From: Minisyncoccota bacterium
GTDB lineage: Bacteria > Patescibacteriota > Minisyncoccia > Phycocordibacterales > UBA9973
Length of the DNA: 64,000 nt
Assembly: GCA_041658325.1 (NCBI GenBank)
Contig: JBBAAI010000001.1
Location: 154,869-218,868, forward strand
Direction of reading: 5' to 3'
The notes beneath the pieces were generated by a model that had not been told where the DNA came from, made no database searches, and saw only the letters and a list, made by a program, of their open reading frames with translations. The first letter of the stretch is position 1, and each line of letters begins with the position of its first letter. Shown in pieces: positions 1 through 59,839 of this stretch. Position numbers and translations under genes: made by a program.

Positions 1-29
1 AAATTATATATAAAAAATATAAACAATAT

Positions 30-1127
30 ATGAAAATAGAATGTTCAATTGAAAAAATCAAAAATGCTATCTTCCAAACAGAAAGAATAACTGGTAAAAA
101 TCTTACCTTACCGATTTTAAATTCAATTTTATTAACTGCCTCTGGTAAATCATTAAAATTAAGATCCACAAATTTAAATCTTGGTGTTGAAATTGAAATT
201 TCCGCAAAAATAGAAAAAGAAGGAAGTTTAGCCATTTCAGGAACAGTATTGAACGCTGTTTTTTCTAATGTTTCTCAAAATGAAAATGTTTTTATAGAAA
301 AAAAAGATGAAAATTTATTAATTAAAACAAAAAAGAGTCAAATAAAGTTAAAAAGTCAGCCACACGATGATTTTCCAACGATTCCAATAGTTACCGGGGC
401 TAGTTTTGAGATAGAATCAAAAAAACTAATTGAAGGTATTAAATCAGTTTATTATAGTTCTTCAGTTTCAGATATTAAACCAGAAATTTCGAGCGTTTTT
501 ATCTACACGAAAGAAGATAGTTTAGTTTTTGTTTCTACGGACTCCTTTAGGTTGGCAGAAAAAAGAATAAAAGTAAAAGGAGTTGAGGAAATCTCGGGAA
601 TTTTAATACCCTTCAGAAATATTGGGGAAATAATGAAAATTTTTGGAGAAATTCAAGGAACAATAAATGTTTGTTTTAATAAAAATCAAATTTCTTTTTC
701 TTCCGATGGTGTTTATTTAACCTCACGGATAATTGATGGAATTTTTCCAGACTATCGTCAAATTATTCCAAAAGAATCATCCACCGACGTGGTGGTTTTA
801 AAACAAGACTTATTAAATGCCTTAAAACTTTCAAATGTTTTTTCCGATAAATTTAATCAGGTTAATCTTAAAATTTTACCAAAAGAAAAAGTTTTAGAAT
901 TTTCTTCTGTAAATAATGATATTGGAGAAAATAAAACATATTTAGATGCTGTTATAAACGGAGAAAATATTGAACTAGGTTTTAATTATAAGTATTTTTT
1001 AGATTGTTTCCAATCAATCACCACCGACAGTGTTTCTATAAAATTTTCCGGGAATTCTAAACCAATAGTTGTTTCTCCTGTTTCCGACCCGTCTTTTACT
1101 TACCTTATTATGCCAATGAATAAATAA
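30..1127 (+). CDS. dnaN: DNA polymerase III beta sliding clamp
   Basis: 365 aa; N-terminal MKIECSIEKIKNAI...LPILNSILL clamp signature; three-domain length; first gene of window as expected after dnaA. Confidence 0.85.
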   Translation: MKIECSIEKIKNAIFQTERITGKNLTLPILNSILLTASGKSLKLRSTNLNLGVEIEISAKIEKEGSLAISGTVLNAVFSNVSQNENVFIEKKDENLLIKTKKSQIKLKSQPHDDFPTIPIVTGASFEIESKKLIEGIKSVYYSSSVSDIKPEISSVFIYTKEDSLVFVSTDSFRLAEKRIKVKGVEEISGILIPFRNIGEIMKIFGEIQGTINVCFNKNQISFSSDGVYLTSRIIDGIFPDYRQIIPKESSTDVVVLKQDLLNALKLSNVFSDKFNQVNLKILPKEKVLEFSSVNNDIGENKTYLDAVINGENIELGFNYKYFLDCFQSITTDSVSIKFSGNSKPIVVSPVSDPSFTYLIMPMNK

Positions 1128-1389: not shown

Positions 1390-3936
1390 TTATTGTACCC
1401 TAAAATTTAGGGTTGATTCACTGCGGTTGTATACTGTGTCGTAAGATATTATTTTTAGTGTATTTTCTGCTTGAATGTTTCCTATTTCCCTTGGGGTAAA
1501 GGAAAAAATAAAAGGTGATTTTATCGTTTCTATATAAATATCATTTATAAAAACATCTATTTTTAATAAAGGAAAAACACCAAAACTTGAAGTTTTTAAA
1601 TAAATTTTTTGGTCTTGTGGGTAGTTTATTGTGTTGTTTGGTTCAAGAATTAAAACTGTTGGTTTTGATAAATCTGTGTGTATGTCATCTGTCATGGTTG
1701 GTTTTTCTTCCCATGTTGTTGTTGAATATCCATTTTTATTTTGGGCCCACCAGTTTTGTACAGGTATTTCCCAATGATTAAACTGAGGGTCACTCTCTGG
1801 GTTTATTGGGGCTAAACCAAGAATATCGTTTTTGTTTATCCAAAACAAAATTGAATGTACATTTGTTATTACTTTTTCTTGCAGGGTTTCTTTGGGGGTG
1901 AGGGGGGTGGCCAGTTTTCCTGAAAGTTTGTCTATGAAGAAATTTTCATTTCCTTGCCAAAAACCACGTAGGGCTGGTTTTATTTTTTTGGGATCAATTT
2001 CTGTATCTGGTTTTTCAAAACTTTCATTTGGTAAGTTTTTTAATGCTTCAATTATAAATTTATTCCAAATTGGTCCTGCCATTGTTGAACCTCCTTTTTT
2101 CATCGGAGCGTTTTCATTATTACCAGCCCAAACTCCCACTACAATAGATGGTGTATATCCAACAGTCCAGGCATCTTTATTACTATTAGTTGTTCCTGTC
2201 TTTACCGCCACTTTTTTCCCAGCTATTTGAAGAACTGAATTTGTTCCAAAGGTTGGAATCCGAGCTTCATTGTCAGATAAAATATCAGAAATAGTTAAAG
2301 CAGTGTTTTTAGGTAAGACCTCTTGTGTTTTTGGACTAAATTCTTCTAAAATTTTTCCATTTAAATCTTCAACTTTTAAAATTCCAGTATATGGATTTTT
2401 AAGGCCGCTATTTGCAAAAACTCCATAAGCGGAAGTCATATCAAGAAGAGATACTTCACCACCTCCAATAACAAGAGTGAGTCCGTATTGTCCGACATCT
2501 TTTAAAGTACTAATTCCCATACTTTCTGCTGTTTTTAGTGAATCAGAAAGTCCTGCTAAATAAAAAAGTTTTACTGCTGGTATGTTGATTGATTGAGCTA
2601 AGGCATCTCGTAGTGCCATTGGCCCACGATATTTTCCATCATAATTGTCTGGCATATAACAGTCCTTTTGACTGTATCCAGGGAGGGCTTTACCATAAGC
2701 GTTACAGGTGGTTTGAAATTCTGTAGGTAGATCAAAGAGTACTGTTTCTGGAGTAAAACCCTTATTGAAGGCTGTGGCGTAAATAAAAGGCTTAAAAGAG
2801 GAGCCTGGTTGTCTGTTAGCTGTGGCTATATTAAAATTACCATCAATTGTTTTATCAAAATAGTCTCTTGACCCAACCATTGTTAAAATCTGTCCAGTTT
2901 TTGGGTCTATTGCTACTAATCCCGCATTTTTTCCACTCCAATCTTTTTCGTTTTTAAGGGCACCCTCTTTTACAATTTGTTCCGCTTTTGTTTGTAAATC
3001 AATATCAATAGTCGTAGTGATTTTAAGTCCTCCATTTTCCATCATACTAGATCCATATTTTTGTTCTAAATAATCTTTAATAAAAAAAACAAAATGTGGC
3101 GCCTTAATTCCTGTAGTTGCTTGTGGAACAAAAGCAACTACTTCATTTTTTGCTTTATTGTATTCTTCTTTTGTAATAAACCTAAGTTCCAACATCCTAG
3201 AAAGTACTAAATTTTTTCTCTCCTCTAATTTATTTTTATTTTTTCCATAAGGAGAAAAAAAAGTTGGAGACTGGGGGATAGATGCTAAATAAGATGCTTC
3301 CGCTAAGGTTAAATCCTGAGCATTTTTATTAAAATAGGTTTTACTGGCTGCTTCTATTCCATAAACATTTCCGCCATAAGGAATTTCATTTAAATAGGCT
3401 TCTAAAATTTTTTCTTTTGGCATAGATTTATCAATTTTTATTGCCAAAACCCATTCCTTTATTTTTCTAATATAACTCTTCTTTTGGGTAAGAAGAGTGT
3501 TTTTTACTAACTGTTGGGTGATGGTTGATCCACCTCCCCCGATTCCAAAACCAAATAAATTTGAAAGAAATGCTCGAACGATAGAGGTTATTCTTATTCC
3601 TCCATGAGTATAAAACTCAGAGTCTTCAATGGCGACGGTTGCATTTTTAATGTTCAAGCCCATTTGGTCAAAAGAGATATCTGTTCTTTTTGTATCTTGA
3701 TGTATGTCATAAAGGAGAATTTCGCCTGTACGATCATAAATTTGAGTCGAATTTACAACCTTTCTATTTTTAAAAGAATTAAAATCAGGAATACTCATAG
3801 AAAAGATCCAAATAATCACAACACTAGAGATTAAAACAAAAAGACCCGCCAAAAAGAATACTATATTTTTTAATAATCTTTTGTTTTTATATATATTTTT
3901 TAATATTTTAGATATTTCTTTCATCCCTTTAATCAT
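1390..3936 (-). CDS. class A penicillin-binding protein (transglycosylase + transpeptidase) with long C-terminal extension
   Basis: GT51 motif GGGGSTITQQLVKN; transpeptidase SSFKPF and KTGT motifs; N-terminal TM. ORF track extends to 4113 but likely start is MIKGMKEIS near 3936, which avoids overlap with tyrS. Confidence 0.8.
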   Translation of the reverse strand: MIKGMKEISKILKNIYKNKRLLKNIVFFLAGLFVLISSVVIIWIFSMSIPDFNSFKNRKVVNSTQIYDRTGEILLYDIHQDTKRTDISFDQMGLNIKNATVAIEDSEFYTHGGIRITSIVRAFLSNLFGFGIGGGGSTITQQLVKNTLLTQKKSYIRKIKEWVLAIKIDKSMPKEKILEAYLNEIPYGGNVYGIEAASKTYFNKNAQDLTLAEASYLASIPQSPTFFSPYGKNKNKLEERKNLVLSRMLELRFITKEEYNKAKNEVVAFVPQATTGIKAPHFVFFIKDYLEQKYGSSMMENGGLKITTTIDIDLQTKAEQIVKEGALKNEKDWSGKNAGLVAIDPKTGQILTMVGSRDYFDKTIDGNFNIATANRQPGSSFKPFIYATAFNKGFTPETVLFDLPTEFQTTCNAYGKALPGYSQKDCYMPDNYDGKYRGPMALRDALAQSINIPAVKLFYLAGLSDSLKTAESMGISTLKDVGQYGLTLVIGGGEVSLLDMTSAYGVFANSGLKNPYTGILKVEDLNGKILEEFSPKTQEVLPKNTALTISDILSDNEARIPTFGTNSVLQIAGKKVAVKTGTTNSNKDAWTVGYTPSIVVGVWAGNNENAPMKKGGSTMAGPIWNKFIIEALKNLPNESFEKPDTEIDPKKIKPALRGFWQGNENFFIDKLSGKLATPLTPKETLQEKVITNVHSILFWINKNDILGLAPINPESDPQFNHWEIPVQNWWAQNKNGYSTTTWEEKPTMTDDIHTDLSKPTVLILEPNNTINYPQDQKIYLKTSSFGVFPLLKIDVFINDIYIETIKSPFIFSFTPREIGNIQAENTLKIISYDTVYNRSESTLNFRVQ

Positions 3937-7829: not shown

Positions 7830-9527
7830 CTATTCTTCGCGTAGGTCAACAACGCTTTGTACTTCTTCAAACGAAGTAATGCCATTTATTATTTTTACCA
7901 TTCCATCTTGGCGCATAGAAAGTATTCCTTGAGCTCTCGCAACTTTTTTTATTTCTCGTTCACTTGGATTTTCTGTCATAATTTTTTCTATGGCCTCGTC
8001 TGTTCTAATGGCTTCAAAAATACCCATTCTTCCTTTAAATCCTGTCATGTTGCATTTTTCACAGCCAACAGAAGAAAAAAGCTTAAAAGGAACATCTGGA
8101 TTTATTTTATAATTTGAAAGACTTTTCCCTTCTTCTTTTATGCTATTTAGAACAGATTTCATTATTTCTTCCTCTTCTTTGTTTGGGGTTTTTCCTTTTT
8201 TACAAAAAGCGCACAATTTGCGTACTAATCGTTGGGCGATAGAAAGAGACAAAGCTGAAACTAAAATTTTTGGGTTTACTCCAAGGTCGATAAGTCGGGG
8301 AATAACACCAGCGGCATTGTTTGTGTGAAGAGTAGAAAAAACTATATGACCAGTAAGGGCTGATTGAACTGCTATTTCGGCGGTTTCTTTGTCGCGAATT
8401 TCTCCGACCATTACCACATCTGGATCTTGACGGAGAGCTGAACGTAGTCCTTCTGCAAAAGTATAACCTCTTTGGTCATTTGTTTGAGTTTGAGTTATAC
8501 CGGTTAAGTGATATTCAATCGGATCTTCAATGGTTATTATTTTTATTTCTGGAGAATAAATTTTCCTTAAAAAGGCATAAAGAGTAGTGGTTTTTCCAGA
8601 GCCGGTCGGACCAGTAACTAAAATTAGGCCATTTGGTTTTACAATTTCTTGTTCTATCACAGAAAATAAAAATGGTTCTATTCCTATCTCTTCAAGTTCT
8701 ATTTGAATAGACTTTGGATCCAAAATACGCATGACGATTGATTCACCATATGCTCCGGGGATAAGAGAAGCACGAATGCTTATTTCTTCTTTTTCTTCCA
8801 TAATACTAAAACGTCCATCCTGAGCTATATTGGAAGTTAATTTCATTCCAGACAATAATTTAATACGCGAATTTAATAATTTATAAACATCCGTTCCAAA
8901 AAAACTTACATCTTGTAAAACACCATCAAGACGCAGGCGCAATCTACCCCTTTCTTGTTCTGGTTCTATGTGTATATCAGAAGCTTTAATGGCTATTGCT
9001 CCAGCTAAAATTACTTCTAAAAGACGAGAAATTTTATGAATTTTATTTCCCTCTAAGGCCTCCGTTATCATTTTTTGAATATCCTGTATTTTTTGTATTT
9101 TATTTGCTGTCTCTCTTAAAACTTCTCCAGAAATATCCAATCCTCCAATCTTTGAAGTTTCTGCCATTGAAATTTCTTTATATCTTTCCCAAACTTTATT
9201 TATACTGGCCGTGGATACCATGTAAAAAGTTGGAATCAGATTTTTTCTCTCCATATCCTCTTTTAACCTTTTTATAAGATCGTCTTTTGGAGAGTGCAAG
9301 GCTATAAAAATATTTTTTCCAAAAAGTTTAAAAGGCGCTACGTTCATTTCCCTAGAATCTTTTTCAGATATTGCTCGAAGTGCTTCATTGTCTATACCTA
9401 GTCGATAGAGGTCAATATAAGGAAGACCATATTTGGATTCCGCCAGGGTTGCCACCAACTGCTCCTCTTCTTGTTTGTGTAAATCTTCTAGTTGTTTATT
9501 TTGTTTTTCTTCATCAAATAAAGCCAT
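7830..9527 (-). CDS. pilB: type IV pilus assembly ATPase, PilB/GspE family
   Basis: N-terminal GSPII_E_N-like domain; Walker A LVTGPTGSGKTTTLYA; Asp/His boxes; tetracysteine CAFC...CEKC zinc motif. Confidence 0.8.
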   Translation of the reverse strand: MALFDEEKQNKQLEDLHKQEEEQLVATLAESKYGLPYIDLYRLGIDNEALRAISEKDSREMNVAPFKLFGKNIFIALHSPKDDLIKRLKEDMERKNLIPTFYMVSTASINKVWERYKEISMAETSKIGGLDISGEVLRETANKIQKIQDIQKMITEALEGNKIHKISRLLEVILAGAIAIKASDIHIEPEQERGRLRLRLDGVLQDVSFFGTDVYKLLNSRIKLLSGMKLTSNIAQDGRFSIMEEKEEISIRASLIPGAYGESIVMRILDPKSIQIELEEIGIEPFLFSVIEQEIVKPNGLILVTGPTGSGKTTTLYAFLRKIYSPEIKIITIEDPIEYHLTGITQTQTNDQRGYTFAEGLRSALRQDPDVVMVGEIRDKETAEIAVQSALTGHIVFSTLHTNNAAGVIPRLIDLGVNPKILVSALSLSIAQRLVRKLCAFCKKGKTPNKEEEEIMKSVLNSIKEEGKSLSNYKINPDVPFKLFSSVGCEKCNMTGFKGRMGIFEAIRTDEAIEKIMTENPSEREIKKVARAQGILSMRQDGMVKIINGITSFEEVQSVVDLREE

Positions 9528-9565
9528 TTACAATAAAGTATATCTTAAATGGTATAATTTACACA

Positions 9566-11986
9566 ATGCCTGAAAATAATAAAAAATTAGTACTACTAGA
9601 TGCTCACGCTATAATACATCGCGCATATCATGCGTTGCCAGAATTTTTGTCCTCAAAAGGGGAGCCCACTGGAGCTCTTTACGGTCTTTCTAGTATGTTA
9701 ATGAAAATAATTACTGAATTAAAACCAGACTACATTGTTGCTTGTTATGATTTACCACAGAAAACTTTTAGGCACGAAGCTTACGATGGGTATAAGGCGG
9801 GTAGAGCAAAAACAGACGAAGCTCTCATCTCTCAACTAAAGAACTCGCGTCAAATTTTTGAGGGATTTAATATACCAATTTATGATGCTCCTGGATTTGA
9901 AGCCGATGATATTTTAGGAACAATAGTAGAAAAATATAAAAAAGATAAAAAACTAGAAATAATTATTGCCTCGGGAGACATGGATACTATGCAATTAGTG
10001 GAGGATAAAAAGGTACAAGTTTATACTCTAAAAAAGGGAATCAATGACACCATTTTATATGACGAAGACGCAGTAATAAAAAGATTTAACTTTAAGCCGA
10101 AATTTTTACCAGACTATAAAGGTCTACGAGGTGACCCTTCAGATAATATTATTGGCATTAAAGGGATAGGTGAAAAAACTGCTGAAATTTTGATTACAAA
10201 TTTTGGAACGATAGAAGAAATATATAAGAAAATTAAAAAAGACGACGAAGTCTTCAAAAAAGCAGGGATTTCTCCGAGAATAATTGAATTACTAAAAAAC
10301 AATGAGGAGGAAGCTTTCTTTTCAAAAACATTAGCAACAATACGCACAGATGCACCAATAGATTTTGTTTTACCTACAAAAACTTTTTGGAAAAATGTGG
10401 ACCCTAAAAAAATAGAAGAAGTTTTTATTATTTTTGAATTTAGAAGTTTATTTGCACGATTAAAAAATTTTTTAAATTCTTCGGTAAATCCAGCAGAATT
10501 TTCTCAGGTCCTCGGTTCTCCGGGGCCCCGCACCCCGGCCAGACCGTTCGAAAATTCTCTGGATTCACCAATCAACATTAATACTCAAAAATTACAAGAA
10601 GCTAGTATCGCGCTCTGGCTTATTAATTCTGATATTTCAAACCCAGGATTGGAAGATATTTTGCTTTTTGCTAAGACAAAATCTTTTGAGGAGGCATATG
10701 AATTTATTTTTGATAAATTAAAAGAACAAAAATTAGATAAAGTATATGAAGAAATAGAAAAACCGATTATTCCCATAGTGAAAGAAATGGAAGATTTTGG
10801 AATTTTAATAGATAAAAAATATTTTGAAAAATTATCTAATGAATACCATAAAGAATTAGATATTCTAACTAAAAAAATATATAAAGAAGCTGGCGCAGAG
10901 TTTAATATTAATTCTCCAAAGCAAATGGGTGAAGTGCTTTTTGGAAAAATGGGGATGAAGTCTAGTAAAAAGAAAAATGCCAGCGGATCGTTTTCCACGA
11001 AGGTTTCAGTCTTAGAGGAGTTGGAAGAAAACAACCCTATCATAAAAGAAATTTTGGCTTATAGAGAGTTACAAAAATTACTTTCTACTTATATTGATGT
11101 AATTCCAAAAATGGTTTCTGAAGATGGTCGATTACACGCTAAGTTCTTGCAAAATGGAACTACAACTGGTCGATTTTCTTCTCAAGATCCAAATTTACAA
11201 AACTTACCAATAAAAACAGAACTGGGCAGAAAAATTAGAGGTGGTTTTATTGCTGAAAAAGGATGTAAACTCGCGGCCTTTGATTATAGCCAGATTGAAT
11301 TACGTGTAATAGCGATGCTCTCAGGGGATAAAAAGATGATCCAAATTTTTAAGGACAAAAAAGATATTCATGCTGGAGTGGCTTCTTTTGTTTTTGGGGT
11401 GCCTATTGAAAAAGTAGATGGAGAAATGCGTCGCAAGGCAAAGGTAATAAATTTTGGTATTATTTACGGAATGGGGGTTTCCGCCTTAAGAAAAAATCTT
11501 GGAGGTACCCGGGAAGAAGCTCAAAAATTTTATGATAATTATTTTAATCAATTTTCTGGTGTGCGAGATTATTTAGAAAAAGTAAAAATAGATGCTCTTA
11601 AAAAATTTTATACAGAAACTTTATTTGGTCGACGTAGATATTTTCCAAACATAAATTCTAGAATTCCATTTTTAAAAAATATGGCTGAGAGAACAGCAAT
11701 GAATGCTCCTGTTCAGGGCACGGCAACAGCAGACATTATTAAGCTTGCCATAAGATACGCAGAAGAAGATCTGGAAAAAGAGGGTTTATTAAAAAAGACT
11801 CATCTTGTGCTTCAAATACATGATGAATTAGTCTATGAAATAGACGAAAAAGCACTACCACAAGCCTTAAAAATAATAGAAAGTGCAATGAAGGATGTGC
11901 TCAACAGGTCATATTTACACTATAAAACTGATATTCCACTTGAAGTACATTCTGGTTCGGGAAATAATTTTATGGAAGTTAAATAA
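9566..11986 (+). CDS. polA: DNA polymerase I (5'-3' exonuclease + polymerase domains)
   Basis: 5'-3' exo N-terminus LVLLDAHAIIHRAYHA; polymerase motifs DYSQIELR, KVINFGIIYGM, QIHDELVYE. Start taken at MPENNKK (9566). Contains an in-frame GC-rich insert at 10510-10545. Confidence 0.85.
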   Translation: MPENNKKLVLLDAHAIIHRAYHALPEFLSSKGEPTGALYGLSSMLMKIITELKPDYIVACYDLPQKTFRHEAYDGYKAGRAKTDEALISQLKNSRQIFEGFNIPIYDAPGFEADDILGTIVEKYKKDKKLEIIIASGDMDTMQLVEDKKVQVYTLKKGINDTILYDEDAVIKRFNFKPKFLPDYKGLRGDPSDNIIGIKGIGEKTAEILITNFGTIEEIYKKIKKDDEVFKKAGISPRIIELLKNNEEEAFFSKTLATIRTDAPIDFVLPTKTFWKNVDPKKIEEVFIIFEFRSLFARLKNFLNSSVNPAEFSQVLGSPGPRTPARPFENSLDSPININTQKLQEASIALWLINSDISNPGLEDILLFAKTKSFEEAYEFIFDKLKEQKLDKVYEEIEKPIIPIVKEMEDFGILIDKKYFEKLSNEYHKELDILTKKIYKEAGAEFNINSPKQMGEVLFGKMGMKSSKKKNASGSFSTKVSVLEELEENNPIIKEILAYRELQKLLSTYIDVIPKMVSEDGRLHAKFLQNGTTTGRFSSQDPNLQNLPIKTELGRKIRGGFIAEKGCKLAAFDYSQIELRVIAMLSGDKKMIQIFKDKKDIHAGVASFVFGVPIEKVDGEMRRKAKVINFGIIYGMGVSALRKNLGGTREEAQKFYDNYFNQFSGVRDYLEKVKIDALKKFYTETLFGRRRYFPNINSRIPFLKNMAERTAMNAPVQGTATADIIKLAIRYAEEDLEKEGLLKKTHLVLQIHDELVYEIDEKALPQALKIIESAMKDVLNRSYLHYKTDIPLEVHSGSGNNFMEVK

Positions 11987-18143: not shown

Positions 18144-19481
18144 ATGCAAAAAGAGTATCTAAAAAAAGTAAAATTGCCTGATAGGACCGGAGTTTATTTT
18201 TTTCGAAAAGGAAAGGAAATAATTTATATCGGCAAAGCAACTTCTCTTCGAGATAGGGTAAAAAGTTATTTCAGCAAAGATCTCATAGAAACACGCGGGC
18301 AATTCCTTGTGGATATGGTTTTCAAGGCAGATAAAATTGATTGGCAAACTACTGATAGTGTGCTCGAAGCACTAATCCTCGAAGCAAATTTAATTAAAAA
18401 ATATCAGCCGAAATATAATTCCAGAGAAAAAGATGATAAAAGTTTCAATTATGTTTGCATCACGCGTGAAGAAATTCCGAAAGTTGTGCTCGTGAGGGGA
18501 AAAGAATTGGAGGGCTCTGTCGAGCAAAGCTTTTCTCGGGCCCTCGGTTCTCCGGGGCCCCGTGCCCCGGCCAGACCAGCTCGAAAAGCCCCGCTCGGCT
18601 TCGCGAAGGTTTTTGGACCCTATCCGAATGGCGGGCAATTGAAAGAAGCTATAAAAATAATTCGCCGGATATTCCCATTTCTAGACGAGAAGAGTAAAAA
18701 TTATCTTGAATTTTATAAGCAAATAAATTTAGTGCCGGATTTGAAAGACAGGAAACTATATTTGCAGAATATTAGAAATATTATTTTATTTTTTGAAGGG
18801 AAAAAGAAAAAGATTTTGAAAAATTTGGAGAAGGAAATGAAAGAATATGCAAAAAGGAGAGAGTTTGAAAAAGCGGGAGAAATAAAAAGACAAATTTTTG
18901 CGTTGAAACATATAAATGACGTAGCCCTAATCAAAAATGGTAGCTCTGCTTCTTCCAATTTTCTGCCCCTGCGCCCTTCTTCGGGCGCTACGGACTCAAA
19001 GCGGGACCCTCGGGGACAGAAAACTGAAAGAAGCTACGCTAGAATAGAGGCGTATGATATTGCGCATATGGGAGGCAAAAATATGGTTGGGGTTATGGTC
19101 GTTGTAGAGAATGGTGAAGTAAACAAAAACGAATACAGAAAATTCAAAATTAAAACTCAAAAAAATACAAACGACACAGGAGCGTTAAAAGAAGTCATAG
19201 AGAGGCGTTTAGCGCACGCAGAATGGACATTTCCTTCGTTGGTAGTTGTGGATGGAGGAAAAGCGCAAATTAATACAGCAAAAAAAGTTATACTTAAGGC
19301 GGGGTTAAATATTCCGGTGGTCTCAGTTTTAAAAGACGAAAAACATAAACCGAAAGATATTTTAGGCGACAAAATTTTCGCTCGGAAATACGAAAGGGAA
19401 ATTTTGCTTGCCAACAGTGAAGCGCACAGATTTGCGATTAATTATCATAAAAAAATGCGCAATAAGAACTTTTTAAAATAA
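18144..19481 (+). CDS. uvrC: excinuclease ABC subunit C (short form lacking a C-terminal HhH region)
   Basis: GIY-YIG N-terminus GVYFFRKGKEIIYIGKA; UvrC RNase H-like endonuclease region EAYDIAHMGGKNMVG. Two GC-rich in-frame inserts (18542-18577 and about 18955-19025). Confidence 0.8.
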   Translation: MQKEYLKKVKLPDRTGVYFFRKGKEIIYIGKATSLRDRVKSYFSKDLIETRGQFLVDMVFKADKIDWQTTDSVLEALILEANLIKKYQPKYNSREKDDKSFNYVCITREEIPKVVLVRGKELEGSVEQSFSRALGSPGPRAPARPARKAPLGFAKVFGPYPNGGQLKEAIKIIRRIFPFLDEKSKNYLEFYKQINLVPDLKDRKLYLQNIRNIILFFEGKKKKILKNLEKEMKEYAKRREFEKAGEIKRQIFALKHINDVALIKNGSSASSNFLPLRPSSGATDSKRDPRGQKTERSYARIEAYDIAHMGGKNMVGVMVVVENGEVNKNEYRKFKIKTQKNTNDTGALKEVIERRLAHAEWTFPSLVVVDGGKAQINTAKKVILKAGLNIPVVSVLKDEKHKPKDILGDKIFARKYEREILLANSEAHRFAINYHKKMRNKNFLK

Positions 19482-25469: not shown

Positions 25470-27320
25470 TTATTTTATTGTAGTGGTAGTGGTTTTTTTG
25501 CTAAAAGGTTGGCCAGGTTGACCGAAAAGATATTTAGCAATAAGCACTAATACTAGAATGAGAATAAGCAATAGAAGCCATCCGAAAAGATTTGTCGGAA
25601 GAAAACCAGCCCAGAAGACATTCGCCCCAAGGGAGATTTTGTCATTTGCTGGATCGCTCCAAACTTGTGCGGAGACGTTGGCGTTTACTGATTGAACTTG
25701 ACCAGAAGGATCGATGTAAGAGAGAGTAGCAGGGAAGTTTAAGTTTGTTCCAGCTGGAATATTTTCTCTTACTCGTACTCTCACAGTAACTGTACCTTGG
25801 CCATTTGCTCTAAGTGTTCCTAGATTAAAGACTAAAGTATTGCCAGAAATAATTGGATTGCTTGGAGTTGAGAACATATAATCTACTTCATAAGGAAGAT
25901 TCATTCTCAAAGTAAGTCCAGTTATAGAAGCAGTTCCTATGTTTTGGTAATTTACTGTGTAATTGATTTCATCTCCTGGGCGTGGTCTGGTGTTGTCGAT
26001 TGTAGGAACAATTGGTTGATTGCGATCAATAGAAGAATTGATAAGGACAAGCGAGGTTGGAATAACGGGGTTTGTGTTACTTGCTCCTCGTACATTTATG
26101 GTTACCGAATCAGTATCAGATCCAAAAGCATTGCTACAGGTAATATTATAAGTTCTACTTCCTGTTAATGATCCAGTGTAAAAAGATCCAGGGCCAATAC
26201 TTCTAGTTCCTACCCATCCATTTGATCCACCACTAGCATAACAAGATGTTGCGTTCGTAGTAATCCATCTTATCGTAGCTGCTCCGTTATAAGGAACGCT
26301 CGCTTGATCTGCGTAGAGTACAACTGTAGGTAAATTATTTACAGTATTATATCTACAAGGTAACGTACCTCCATAGTTAATAGCATTTACATCTTGGCAA
26401 ATATTATTTATTTGATTTACATACACTGTCGCTGAAGCATTAGCGGACTGCCCAGTACTGTTCGTACAAGTGACACTATAGTTGGTTGTATATGTTGGAT
26501 AAACTGTTTGAGATCCAGAAGTTGAGTTACTTCCACCCCATGAAGTCGAACAAGATGTTGCATTAGCTGAAGACCAGTTTAAAACTGAACTTTGACCAGA
26601 GGTAATACTTGTTGGATTAGAGTAAAGGAAGACGGTGGGTTGTGCGCTTTGATATCTACAAGGTAACGTACCTCCATAGTTAATAGCATTTACATCTTGG
26701 CAAATATTATTTATTTGATTTACATACACTGTCGCTGAAGCATTAGCGGACTGCCCAGTACTGTTCGTACAAGTGACACTATAGTTGGTTGTATATGTTG
26801 GATAAACTGTTTGAGATCCAGAAGTTGAGTTACTTCCACCCCATGAAGTCGAACAAGATGTTGCATTAGCTGAAGACCAGTTTAAAACTGAACTTTGACC
26901 AGAGGTAATACTTGTTGGATTGGCAGTAAGAGAAACAGTAGGAGTAGCTTGCTGACAAGCAGGCATAGTAAGACTTCTGATATTTAAAGCTTCTGTTCCA
27001 TAGTCGTTTGTAACTATAAGTCTGTAGTAGTATGTGGTGCTTTCAGAAAGACCAGAGATGTATTGTTCAATAGGAAAAGTTCCTTCTGTAGTAAAATACT
27101 GCATCGGAGTTGGAGTTCCTCCACCGTTTGCTACAGTATTATATGACGTATCATATTTAAATTGGGCTCTCGCTGGAGGAGTACCAGTAAAAACCGTACC
27201 AGTAATGGTAACACTATTACAGGTCAACGCAGATGCCGGAGTGGCAACAGCGAAAGAACCTAAGAGGGTAAAAATACCCAACATTAACCCGACCAAAAAT
27301 TTTATATTATTATTTTTCAT
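25470..27320 (-). CDS. large surface protein with signal peptide, Thr/Ser/Asn-rich tandem Ig-like repeats and C-terminal TM anchor
   Basis: Signal peptide MKNNNIKFLVGLMLGIFTLLGSFAVATPASA; C-terminal hydrophobic LLLLILILVLVLIA; internal perfect duplication of about 96 aa. Confidence 0.6.
   Translation of the reverse strand: MKNNNIKFLVGLMLGIFTLLGSFAVATPASALTCNSVTITGTVFTGTPPARAQFKYDTSYNTVANGGGTPTPMQYFTTEGTFPIEQYISGLSESTTYYYRLIVTNDYGTEALNIRSLTMPACQQATPTVSLTANPTSITSGQSSVLNWSSANATSCSTSWGGSNSTSGSQTVYPTYTTNYSVTCTNSTGQSANASATVYVNQINNICQDVNAINYGGTLPCRYQSAQPTVFLYSNPTSITSGQSSVLNWSSANATSCSTSWGGSNSTSGSQTVYPTYTTNYSVTCTNSTGQSANASATVYVNQINNICQDVNAINYGGTLPCRYNTVNNLPTVVLYADQASVPYNGAATIRWITTNATSCYASGGSNGWVGTRSIGPGSFYTGSLTGSRTYNITCSNAFGSDTDSVTINVRGASNTNPVIPTSLVLINSSIDRNQPIVPTIDNTRPRPGDEINYTVNYQNIGTASITGLTLRMNLPYEVDYMFSTPSNPIISGNTLVFNLGTLRANGQGTVTVRVRVRENIPAGTNLNFPATLSYIDPSGQVQSVNANVSAQVWSDPANDKISLGANVFWAGFLPTNLFGWLLLLILILVLVLIAKYLFGQPGQPFSKKTTTTTIK
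26351..26931. repeat. 303-bp direct tandem duplication (2 copies, 278 bp identical per unit) inside surface protein gene
   Basis: Read directly: atctacaaggtaacgtacctcc...gttggatt occurs at 26351-26628 and 26654-26931 without mismatch. Confidence 0.9.
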
Positions 27321-27480: not shown

Positions 27481-28296
27481 TCAGTAGTAATAACCGGTAT
27501 TTCCGCCGTATCCTCCGTTAGGAGGAACGTAGCCATTGGTGTACCCACCAGGGTTGTATCCAGTGGTGTATCCACCGGGGTTGTAACTGCCAGTGTATCC
27601 GCCTACAGTGTAACCGCCAGTGTATCCGCCCGGAGGTACCCCAGGACGAACATAAGGAGGCTGGACGTAATTGTTGTAGCTGTACCCTCCGCCTCCGCAT
27701 CCTCCGCCCAAAGAAATGGAGAGCGAAAAGGATTTTGTGGCTACTGGCGGAGGTGCATAAGCAACCTCGTTTCCATTGTGTCCGTTGTACCCATTGTACC
27801 CATTGTACCCATTGTACCCCGGGGGTCCTGGGTCGCCCTTTTCTCCTTTGTCGCCCTTTGGTCCTTGAGTAAGCTGTGTTTGGTTTACTGTTGGAACAGG
27901 GGCTTGAACCGATGCATGAGGATAGTGAACCTCATATACCGGGTTGCCGCATGCGTCGAGTGCATAGGGCTTCAAGGTTTTATCTCCGAGCACATCCCAC
28001 CGCAGAACTGCTCCGGTGAGCAGGATGACCCACTGCTTTCCGGCGGTGGTCAACATGTGGACCACCGCGTTGCTCTCCAGCGGGGCCGTGATCTTGTTGG
28101 TCCCGTTCACTGGATTGTTCTCCTTAAACCCAAAGTACTTGGGCTCATAGGGGGTAAAGTTTCCCGAGAGTAGGGCAGCGTCTGCCGCCTCGCTGGTCGG
28201 AAACAGGTTGGGTTTGCTTTGAGCGCTGGCTGGCGCGCTCATCAGGGTGGCGACAACCGCCACGAAAACCAACGACGCTACCAGTGCTTTTCTCAT
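27481..28296 (-). CDS. secreted collagen-like, Gly/Tyr-rich protein; GC-rich (compositionally foreign)
   Basis: Signal peptide MRKALVASLVFVAVVATLMSAPASA; GPKGDKGEKGDPGPPG collagen triplets; (YNG)4; GGYTGGYT-type C-terminus; much higher GC than flanks. Confidence 0.6.
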   Translation of the reverse strand: MRKALVASLVFVAVVATLMSAPASAQSKPNLFPTSEAADAALLSGNFTPYEPKYFGFKENNPVNGTNKITAPLESNAVVHMLTTAGKQWVILLTGAVLRWDVLGDKTLKPYALDACGNPVYEVHYPHASVQAPVPTVNQTQLTQGPKGDKGEKGDPGPPGYNGYNGYNGYNGHNGNEVAYAPPPVATKSFSLSISLGGGCGGGGYSYNNYVQPPYVRPGVPPGGYTGGYTVGGYTGSYNPGGYTTGYNPGGYTNGYVPPNGGYGGNTGYYY

Positions 28297-58750: not shown

Positions 58751-59377
58751 ATGGCAAATGCGTCCGAAATCTCTGTCGGTTTAGTTCACGAGCTCGCCAT
58801 CACGGGCACCAAGGTCGGATTCGAGCCCAAAGACTTCGCTACTCTCGCCCACAGCGAGGAAAGGATGTCTTCCATCCTCGGCGTGCTTCATGGTACGCAC
58901 GAGATCCGTCCGATCGATTATGTGATCGATTTCAACTCTCCGGCTCGGTTGCCGTTCAACGGTGCCGTGCTCGAGGTGCACCGCGGAACGGGCATCGTCA
59001 AGCTCGAGAAGAAGGCCGACGGCCTGTATCTCGACGGAAAGAAGCTCACGCTCTTTCTCTCCAAGAAGCAGAAAAAGGGAGGCGTCATCGAGGGCAACAA
59101 GCTTCGCATCGAGCTCGAAAAGAGGGGTAAAAATGTAGGAGCGAAACTCCTTGACCACTTCGTCGAGCATCCAGAGATGTGGCCCGAGGAGTGGAAGAAG
59201 GACGACCAGGGTAATACGCTCTACGTGTTTTTCTGGGATGACATCTTCCGCAACCCGGCGTGTGGCGATCTGTATGTCCGGTGTGGGTGCTGGCGCGGAG
59301 GCGAGGTCATCTCGGGCTACGACTGGCTCGGCGATGACTGGCGCGGCCGCAGCCCGGCTGTCTCTTCCGTAAGTTAG
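58751..59377 (+). CDS. DGR target (variable) protein; C-terminal VR; GC-rich
   Basis: About 208 aa. The 3' 124 bp is homologous to the TR with mismatches only at TR adenines. Start chosen at MANASEISVG (aggaagg SD 9 nt upstream); ORF track alternative start is 58706. Confidence 0.75.
   Translation: MANASEISVGLVHELAITGTKVGFEPKDFATLAHSEERMSSILGVLHGTHEIRPIDYVIDFNSPARLPFNGAVLEVHRGTGIVKLEKKADGLYLDGKKLTLFLSKKQKKGGVIEGNKLRIELEKRGKNVGAKLLDHFVEHPEMWPEEWKKDDQGNTLYVFFWDDIFRNPACGDLYVRCGCWRGGEVISGYDWLGDDWRGRSPAVSSVS
59246..59369 (+). repeat. DGR variable repeat (VR)
   Basis: ttccgcaacccggcg...gctgtctcttccg; 104/124 identical to TR; all 20 mismatches lie opposite TR adenines. Confidence 0.85.
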
Positions 59378-59706: not shown

Positions 59707-59830
59707 TTCCGCAACCCGGCGAATGGCAATCTGTATGTCCGGTATGGGTACTGGAACGAAGGCAAGGTCATCTCGAACTACAACTGGCTCGACAATGACT
59801 GGAACGGCAACAACCCGGCTATCTCTTCCG
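59707..59830 (+). repeat. DGR template repeat (TR)
   Basis: Intergenic copy of VR, rich in AAC/AAT codons (nine Asn codons in VR frame). The open frame in the ORF track (59626..59859) is a consequence of VR homology. Confidence 0.85.
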
Positions 59831-59839
59831 CAACTTACT

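Follow-up and report, generated by a model that had tools for sequence, protein, structure and literature searches.

A sharply bounded 270-bp identity within a predicted surface-protein gene of a Minisyncoccota bacterium probably reflects recent gene conversion between two older modules

Two diverged modules share a perfectly identical tract

We analysed a 64,000-nt stretch (hereafter the window) of contig JBBAAI010000001.1 from an uncultured, ultra-small, Nomurabacteria-like Minisyncoccota bacterium of the Candidate Phyla Radiation (CPR), and focus here on one of its genes. This gene encodes a predicted surface protein of 616 amino acids (aa) in which domains are arranged like beads on a string. 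Two neighbouring immunoglobulin (Ig)-like modules of the protein are identical over 270 bp, but the short segments next to these identical tracts differ strongly. The pattern is probably the result of a recent gene conversion between two paralogous units that already existed.

Base-by-base comparison at an offset of 303 reveals an exact run of 270 bp, corresponding to 90 codons (26349–26618 = 26652–26921), which encodes the identical residues N134–Y223 and N235–Y324. The remaining 33 bp of the period (26619–26651 vs 26922–26954) match at only 15 of 33 positions. Identity stops at the first base past the 270-bp tract on both sides, and the difference between 0/270 mismatches in the tract and 18/33 in the spacer is highly significant (Fisher p = 2e-20; per-site chance identity in the gene is 0.26). 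Tandem Repeats Finder (TRF) reports the same region as a period-303 array of 1.9 copies at 26349–26929 with 99% matches, and a repeat search aligns 26349–26639 with 26652–26942 at 97% identity. The repeat is far above chance, real and non-random. According to a scan of the whole window for repeats, this pair of tracts is the sole long near-perfect repeat in the 64 kb.

We also considered a mobile cassette, or further copies elsewhere in the window. Both ideas were rejected: a tblastn search of the window with the protein matched only the gene itself, and the repeat scan found no further copy.

A preliminary description of the locus had proposed a perfect 303-bp tandem duplication, with identical blocks at 26351–26628 and 26654–26931. 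Its two copies and its 303-nt period are present where they were placed, but only 270 of the 303 positions are exact, and the two blocks agree at 272 of 278 bases. At the protein level, the description was right that both copies encode an identical Ig-like module, since all 90 aa are the same, including the peptides that it quoted.

Read along the coding strand, the region consists of X (11 codons), R1 (90), Y (11), R2 (90) and Z (Table 1). Each identical copy begins after strand A of its module and extends through the final residue of the following linker. The spacers X and Y are themselves homologous strand-A segments that differ at 18 of 33 nt. They have six amino acids in common, five of which are specified by different codons (CAG/CAA, GCT/GCA, CCT/CCC, ACT/ACC and GTT/GTC). 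By contrast, R1 and R2 exhibit zero differences over 90 codons. Since the flanks diverged long ago whereas the tract is recent, we conclude that pre-existing modules were probably homogenised rather than newly duplicated. The “very recent duplication” envisaged earlier is thus at odds with an anciently diverged spacer in which most of the conserved codons have changed synonymously.

Several observations, namely the exact tract and its abrupt ends, flanks that diverged long ago, the arrangement of domains and similar repeats in orthologues (see below), suggest the following course of events. The stalk of the protein would earlier have held two tandem paralogous units of a module and a linker each, repeating every 101 codons. 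In a recent gene conversion, a non-reciprocal event that presumably took place by homologous recombination within one chromosome, 90 codons (270 bp) of one unit would then have overwritten the matching part of the other, while the old, diverged 11-codon strand-A spacers stayed as they were. The resulting direct repeat of 270 bp, with copies that lie in frame and 33 bp apart, could in turn serve as a substrate for unequal recombination, by which one 101-aa unit might be lost or gained in frame. Such a loss or gain would alter how far the distal domain projects, a length variation of the Periscope type discussed below.

The stalk is variable across the protein family

The protein appears to consist, in order, of a signal peptide, a variable distal beta-sandwich, a stalk of Ig modules with two-cysteine linkers, a membrane-proximal Ig module, a DUF11/CLIPPER domain and a transmembrane (TM) anchor. 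More than 890 homologues were found, and those that are named belong to Paceibacterota, Nomurabacteria or Minisyncoccia. A hidden Markov model (HMM) of the module detects 1–8 modules per protein among the top 120 homologue matches. Adjacent modules in the family have a median identity of 49%, and the modules of most members are about 50% identical.

Among 29 metagenome loci, 15 have the same downstream genes as the window gene, namely an RsuA-like pseudouridine synthase (70–85% identical) and an ABC-F gene (83–93%). Because of these shared downstream genes, we regard the loci as positional orthologues. These syntenic orthologues range from 616 to 1403 aa and have 2–9 modules and 0–5 Cys-linkers. 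Their identity to the window protein is 82–92% in the DUF11 region and 64–76% in the third, membrane-proximal module (M3), versus 28–71% in the N-terminal domain and 35–58% in the stalk.

The nearest relative of the last module lies in another protein for 119 of 120 proteins (in the same protein for 1/120), while stalk modules have their nearest relative within their own protein in 51 of 324 cases. This difference implies that the stalk is rebuilt lineage by lineage. From these comparisons, the stalk appears to be the plastic part of the protein and the base its conserved part. The proteins form a large, uncharacterised family of surface proteins in ultra-small CPR bacteria, with a stalk that seems to be reshaped in nearly every lineage on a conserved base.

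Two homologues show that an arrangement of two units can persist and diverge. In P0005, the order is module, linker, module, linker, and the two modules are 77% identical. In P0002, the modules occupy the same residues as in the window protein (126–200 and 227–301).

Near-perfect repeats recur in the family. A module pair that is more than 90% identical occurs in 8 of the 117 multi-module proteins that were scored, counting the window protein and its duplicate record, P0001. The syntenic orthologue at locus L042 has the anatomy of the window gene: a perfect 220-bp tract with a period of 237 and a diverged spacer. Three copies with a period of 246 and 97.5% identity are found at L043, and two further loci have identities of 91.5% over 317 bp with a period of 330 (L010) and 96.7% over 182 bp (L040). 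The syntenic orthologue at L011 (1275 aa) contains a perfect 543-bp repeat with a period of 531. This repeat was missed by TRF, which was run with a period limit of 500, and was recovered by self-BLAST. It is a genuine tandem duplication, in which the duplicated unit comprises two domains. Since near-perfect repeats recur at L042, L043, L010, L040 and L011, duplication and homogenisation are both routine in this family.

L043 has an additional peculiarity. Here, a paralogous DUF11 gene follows the first one at a distance of 2.9 kb downstream, and its first 677 nt are 99.3% identical to that first gene (67–2106 and 2947–3606). This similarity points to a gene-level duplication or conversion as well.

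The gene at L011 also differs from its orthologue in a near-identical strain (99.5–100%; L011 1935–3008 vs L036 4228–4736). At L011, the 531-bp unit is present in two perfect copies, and the open reading frame (ORF) of 1275 aa is intact. In L036 (Nomurabacteria GW2011_GWE1_32_28), there is one 531-bp unit together with deletions of 35 bp and 25 bp, and the ORF is in three pieces. The L036 sequence looks like a collapsed repeat in a public genome. Module counts in short-read metagenome-assembled genomes (MAGs) should be read as lower bounds.

Alternative explanations of the identity

If a single 303-bp unit had recently been duplicated in tandem by slippage or unequal crossing-over, converting a one-module stalk into a two-module stalk, a period of exactly 303 nt (101 codons), in frame and in two copies, would be expected, as is seen here, and L011 illustrates that perfect tandem duplications do arise in the family. 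However, we consider such a simple duplication very improbable for the window gene. A fresh tandem duplication of a 303-nt unit would leave at least 303 identical positions and a spacer formed by the unit's own ends. Instead, identity extends over only 270 of 303 positions, and the 33-bp spacer differs by 55% from its upstream counterpart. At a duplication junction, the ends of the spacer would have to match the flanks of the unit, and neither end does so. Synonymous changes in five of the six conserved spacer codons, beside none in the adjoining 90 codons, argue in the same direction. An assembly artefact, which the preliminary description had offered as an alternative, could take two forms: one real copy whose assembly loop was walked twice, or at least two similar copies that were collapsed or smoothed to identity. 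The sequence comes from a contig of a short-read-type metagenome MAG with one assembly on record, a 270-bp exact repeat exceeds the usual k-mers, and the strain pair L011 and L036 bears the signature of a collapse. Expansion from one copy is nonetheless unlikely, because spacer Y is unique, is in frame, encodes a strand A typical of the family (PTV.L..) and is bordered by the repeat on both sides, which would require at least two copies on one molecule; moreover, the ORF is intact. Collapse of more than two copies, or the smoothing of a few real differences, is possible, but other assemblies in the family retain 2–8% differences between copies (L010, L040 and L043), so smoothing is not universal, which is a weak argument against it here. 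Taken together, we judge a partial artefact to be rather unlikely.

The identity might also be actively maintained by frequent conversion and unequal recombination that constantly generate length variants, making the gene a true Periscope-type switch for host attachment or evasion. With its distal domain, its stalk built from folded repeats and its anchor, the protein has an architecture suitable for this role. The number of modules varies widely among syntenic orthologues, and repeats of high identity recur in several lineages. Yet just two copies are identical here and modules are far more diverged in most members, strain-level variation was not observed, and a single conversion by chance accounts for the data just as well. 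Active maintenance is therefore doubtful as an explanation of this tract, although ongoing variation in repeat number is plausible by analogy with the behaviour of the family. A single recent gene conversion remains our favoured explanation, and some considerations weigh against it. The perfect identity and the copy number appear in one assembly, and metagenome assemblers can merge near-identical copies of a repeat, such that real differences between R1 and R2 may have been erased. Gene conversion needs enough prior homology to start, and the two modules would have to have been similar enough before the event. Either unit may have been the donor, and length variation within the population was not observed. 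An exact 24-mer of the tract had 0 matches in metagenome and genome contig collections, and degenerate, protein-guided scans of metagenome and genome contigs found only relatives at ≤65% identity. The 90% protein cluster contains only two start variants, both from one contig, and a contig look-up for either variant returned no record.

A diversity-generating retroelement, with its template and variable repeats (a TR/VR pair), was rejected: the two copies, both coding sequence of the same gene, show 0 mismatches over 270 nt, while a reverse transcriptase was not searched for.

Comparison with known systems

Concerted evolution through intragenic gene conversion is known among tandem repeats of bacterial surface proteins. 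The window gene resembles such cases in its sharply bounded tract of identity between paralogous repeats with old divergence in the flanks, and in that repeats are often closer within a protein than to orthologous repeats. There is no essential difference, and the gene adds a case from a lineage and a protein family that are both unstudied. It illustrates that a perfect intragenic repeat need not represent a fresh duplication, given that the flanks here reveal a homogenised pair of old modules. In pathogens, repeat stalks are well known to evolve in concert and to vary in length, and therefore the locus opens no long-standing question. The repeat is real, but homogenisation of this kind is ordinary for a fast-evolving family.

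Classical contingency loci have a short (1–7 nt) simple-sequence repeat, in which changes in length shift the reading frame or promoter spacing and lead to on/off switching. The window gene likewise has a repeat inside a surface-protein gene, and this repeat could mutate at a raised rate. However, its period is 303 nt, and an in-frame change would alter the length of the protein rather than turn it on or off. TRF detected neither homopolymers nor short tandem tracts within the gene, where the sole repeat has a period of 303, a multiple of 3. The suggestion of a contingency locus thus does not apply in the classical sense.

The presumed lifestyle of ultra-small CPR bacteria is attachment to other cells, which makes a protein of this type a reasonable candidate for host contact.

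Among the closest parallels to the window protein are the Periscope Proteins, which include SasG/Aap, Rib/alpha C, Sgo_0707, Esp and CdrA (Whelan et al. 2021, PMC8201768). This class is defined by adjacent units that are highly identical in their DNA, an identity that was proposed to permit intragenic recombination and changes in repeat number (PMC8201768). The window protein shares with them a signal peptide, a distal domain, a tandem beta-sandwich stalk and a C-terminal anchor, all predicted in our case. Two neighbouring units of the window protein resemble theirs in a very high DNA identity, by which units might be gained or lost in frame. In both, the number of units differs widely among relatives (for the window protein, among species-level syntenic orthologues with 2–9 modules).

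Unlike these proteins, the window protein has only two identical units (100% over 270/303 nt) and a third module at 34%. It is anchored by a TM helix with an uncatalogued motif rather than by LPXTG or an outer-membrane anchor, its host is a CPR bacterium and its repeat domain is in no Pfam family. It was compared only with relatives at or below about 65% aa identity, so no variation between strains is shown. We tentatively suggest that the gene, whose place beside the RsuA-like pseudouridine synthase and ABC-F genes is conserved in many Nomurabacteria/Paceibacterota, may be a CPR counterpart of a Periscope Protein, an idea that we hold to be less probable than not by a good margin. Under this idea, there would be a conserved base (Ig module 3 and a lysine-free DUF11 domain), stalk units that are continually duplicated, converted and lost, and coexisting length alleles that differ by 303 bp. 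If this is true, turnover of the stalk would tune the reach of the distal domain or vary its exposed surface in host-cell attachment, and the 270-bp tract would be a snapshot of this process.

Fibrillar adhesins with DUF11/CLIPPER stalk domains (PMC12617251; PMC9210967) also have some similarity to the window protein. The DUF11 domain of the latter scores above the Pfam cut-off, and the protein is multi-Ig-like and is predicted to be secreted and anchored. By contrast with these adhesins, it has a single, membrane-adjacent and highly conserved DUF11 domain, and neither a tandem DUF11 stalk nor a recognised adhesive domain. The intramolecular isopeptide triad of CLIPPER domains is Lys-Asp-Asn (PMC12617251). 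There are zero lysines in aa 411–560 of the window protein, and this isopeptide bond therefore cannot form there.

Architecture of the gene and protein

The features of the gene are listed in Table 1. The protein matches NCBI MFA5778050.1 (locus tag WC870_00965) exactly in the protein collection, where it is assigned to a Candidatus Paceibacterota MAG. As the preliminary description had recognised, it is one ORF with a signal-peptide-like N-terminus and a C-terminal TM helix, both of which are predictions. The location at the cell surface is likewise a prediction only, drawn from the signal peptide, the TM helix, the Cys pairs and models made with AlphaFold2 (AF2).

Table 1 Features of the surface-protein gene, in coordinates of the window and residues of the 616-aa protein
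Feature	Window position	Residues (aa)	Strand	Basis
Whole gene; predicted secreted, C-terminally membrane-anchored multi-domain surface protein	25470..27320	1-616	-	ORF list, translation, exact match in protein collection
Signal-peptide-like N-terminus (MKNNNIKFLVGLMLGIFTLLGSFAVATPASA, followed by L)	27228..27320	1-31	-	Read from sequence: basic n-region, hydrophobic core, ASA motif
N-terminal (distal) beta-sandwich, ending ...TMPAC	26958..27227	32-121	-	AF2, predicted local distance difference test (pLDDT) 89-98, all beta
Spacer X (QQATPTVSLTA), strand A of Ig module 1, outside the identical tract	26922..26954	123-133	-	Codon-level comparison
Identical tract, copy R1: remainder of Ig module 1 and Cys-linker (NQINNICQDVNAINYGGTLPCRY)	26652..26921	134-223	-	0 mismatches in 270 nt; limits by HMM and AF2
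Spacer Y (QSAQPTVFLYS), strand A of Ig module 2, unique, tract on both sides	26619..26651	224-234	-	18/33 nt differ from spacer X
Identical tract, copy R2: remainder of Ig module 2 and second Cys-linker	26349..26618	235-324	-	0 mismatches vs R1
Ig-like module M1		126-200	-	HMM, AF2
Two-cysteine linker of 23 aa (NQINNICQDVNAINYGGTLPCRY), after M1		to 223	-	Sequence
Ig-like module M2		227-301	-	HMM, AF2
Second copy of the two-cysteine linker, after M2		to 324	-	Sequence
Ig module 3 (M3)	26091..26333	330-410	-	HMM match
DUF11/CLIPPER domain, most conserved part of the protein	25725..26012	437-532	-	Pfam PF01345
C-terminal TM helix, followed by a short K/T-rich tail	25524..25589	578-599	-	AF2 helix
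Terminator-like hairpin, just downstream of the stop codon	25412..25449		-	Repeat search

The full-length AF2 model has a mean pLDDT of 83, and a single module reaches 95. With a predicted template modelling score (pTM) of 0.34, the domains are confident and the geometry between them is unreliable. The signal-peptide-like stretch has a low pLDDT, and the N-terminus is conserved among homologues. M3 is 34% identical in amino acids to modules 1 and 2; it is conserved across the family, and its nearest relative lies in other proteins (85% identity to homologue P0020). The match to PF01345 has E = 1e-9 and 39.2 bits against a cut-off of 24.6, and the score for TIGR01451 is just under its cut-off (22.8 vs 24).

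Cysteine pairs are nearly invariant both in the module (C31 and C59 of the module alignment) and in the linker. The Ig-like module has no significant match in Pfam (Big_x, PKD, fn3 and I-set included) or in a PDB sequence profile. With the whole protein, Foldseek against PDB returned only generic multi-Ig matches, such as integrins, alpha-2-macroglobulins, PrgB and GhpA.

The linker contains a mini-module of about 21 aa with two cysteines and the pattern C.D..A.NY.G.LPC.Y (window 26349–26417 and 26652–26720). Between the Ig modules of homologues, it is found in 0–6 tandem copies (homologues P0003, P0019 and P0023; loci L001, L012 and L015). In the window protein, its AF2 confidence is 65–74, and Pfam has no match for it.

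Immediately before the TM helix is a strongly conserved motif, LGANVF.AGFLPTNLFGW (window 25524–25640, aa 561–599), in which F573, P575 and W581 are invariant in 65 sequences. The sequence GFLPTNLFGW contains no LPXTG, and no NCBIfam model of a sorting signal matched at E ≤ 1. This motif may be an uncatalogued anchoring or processing signal.

Other elements in the window

The neighbouring gene upstream (27481–28296, - strand) encodes a secreted-looking protein of 271 aa with a collagen-like G-X-Y stretch. The match to the Pfam Collagen model (E = 8e-6) is just under the cut-off. The protein has GYNGYNGYNG and GGYT-type repeats, and TRF detects periods of 9, 12, 18 and 27 in the gene. It is a candidate for a second repeat-rich surface protein beside the one described above.

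An Rfam scan of the window found tRNAs only. A GC-rich element of 47 nt occurs at 10499–10545 and 18531–18577 (+ strand), with the core CTCGGTTCTCCGGGGCCCCG[CA/TG]CCCCGGCCAGACC and a CCGGGG/CCCCGG palindrome. Both copies lie inside long ORFs (9371–11986 and 18144–19481); the window is 36% GC, and no such pair is expected by chance. A small palindromic insertion element located in coding sequence is one possibility. Finally, a direct repeat of 131 nt is present at 59246–59376 and 59707–59837, where the two copies are 83% identical and lie 461 nt apart.

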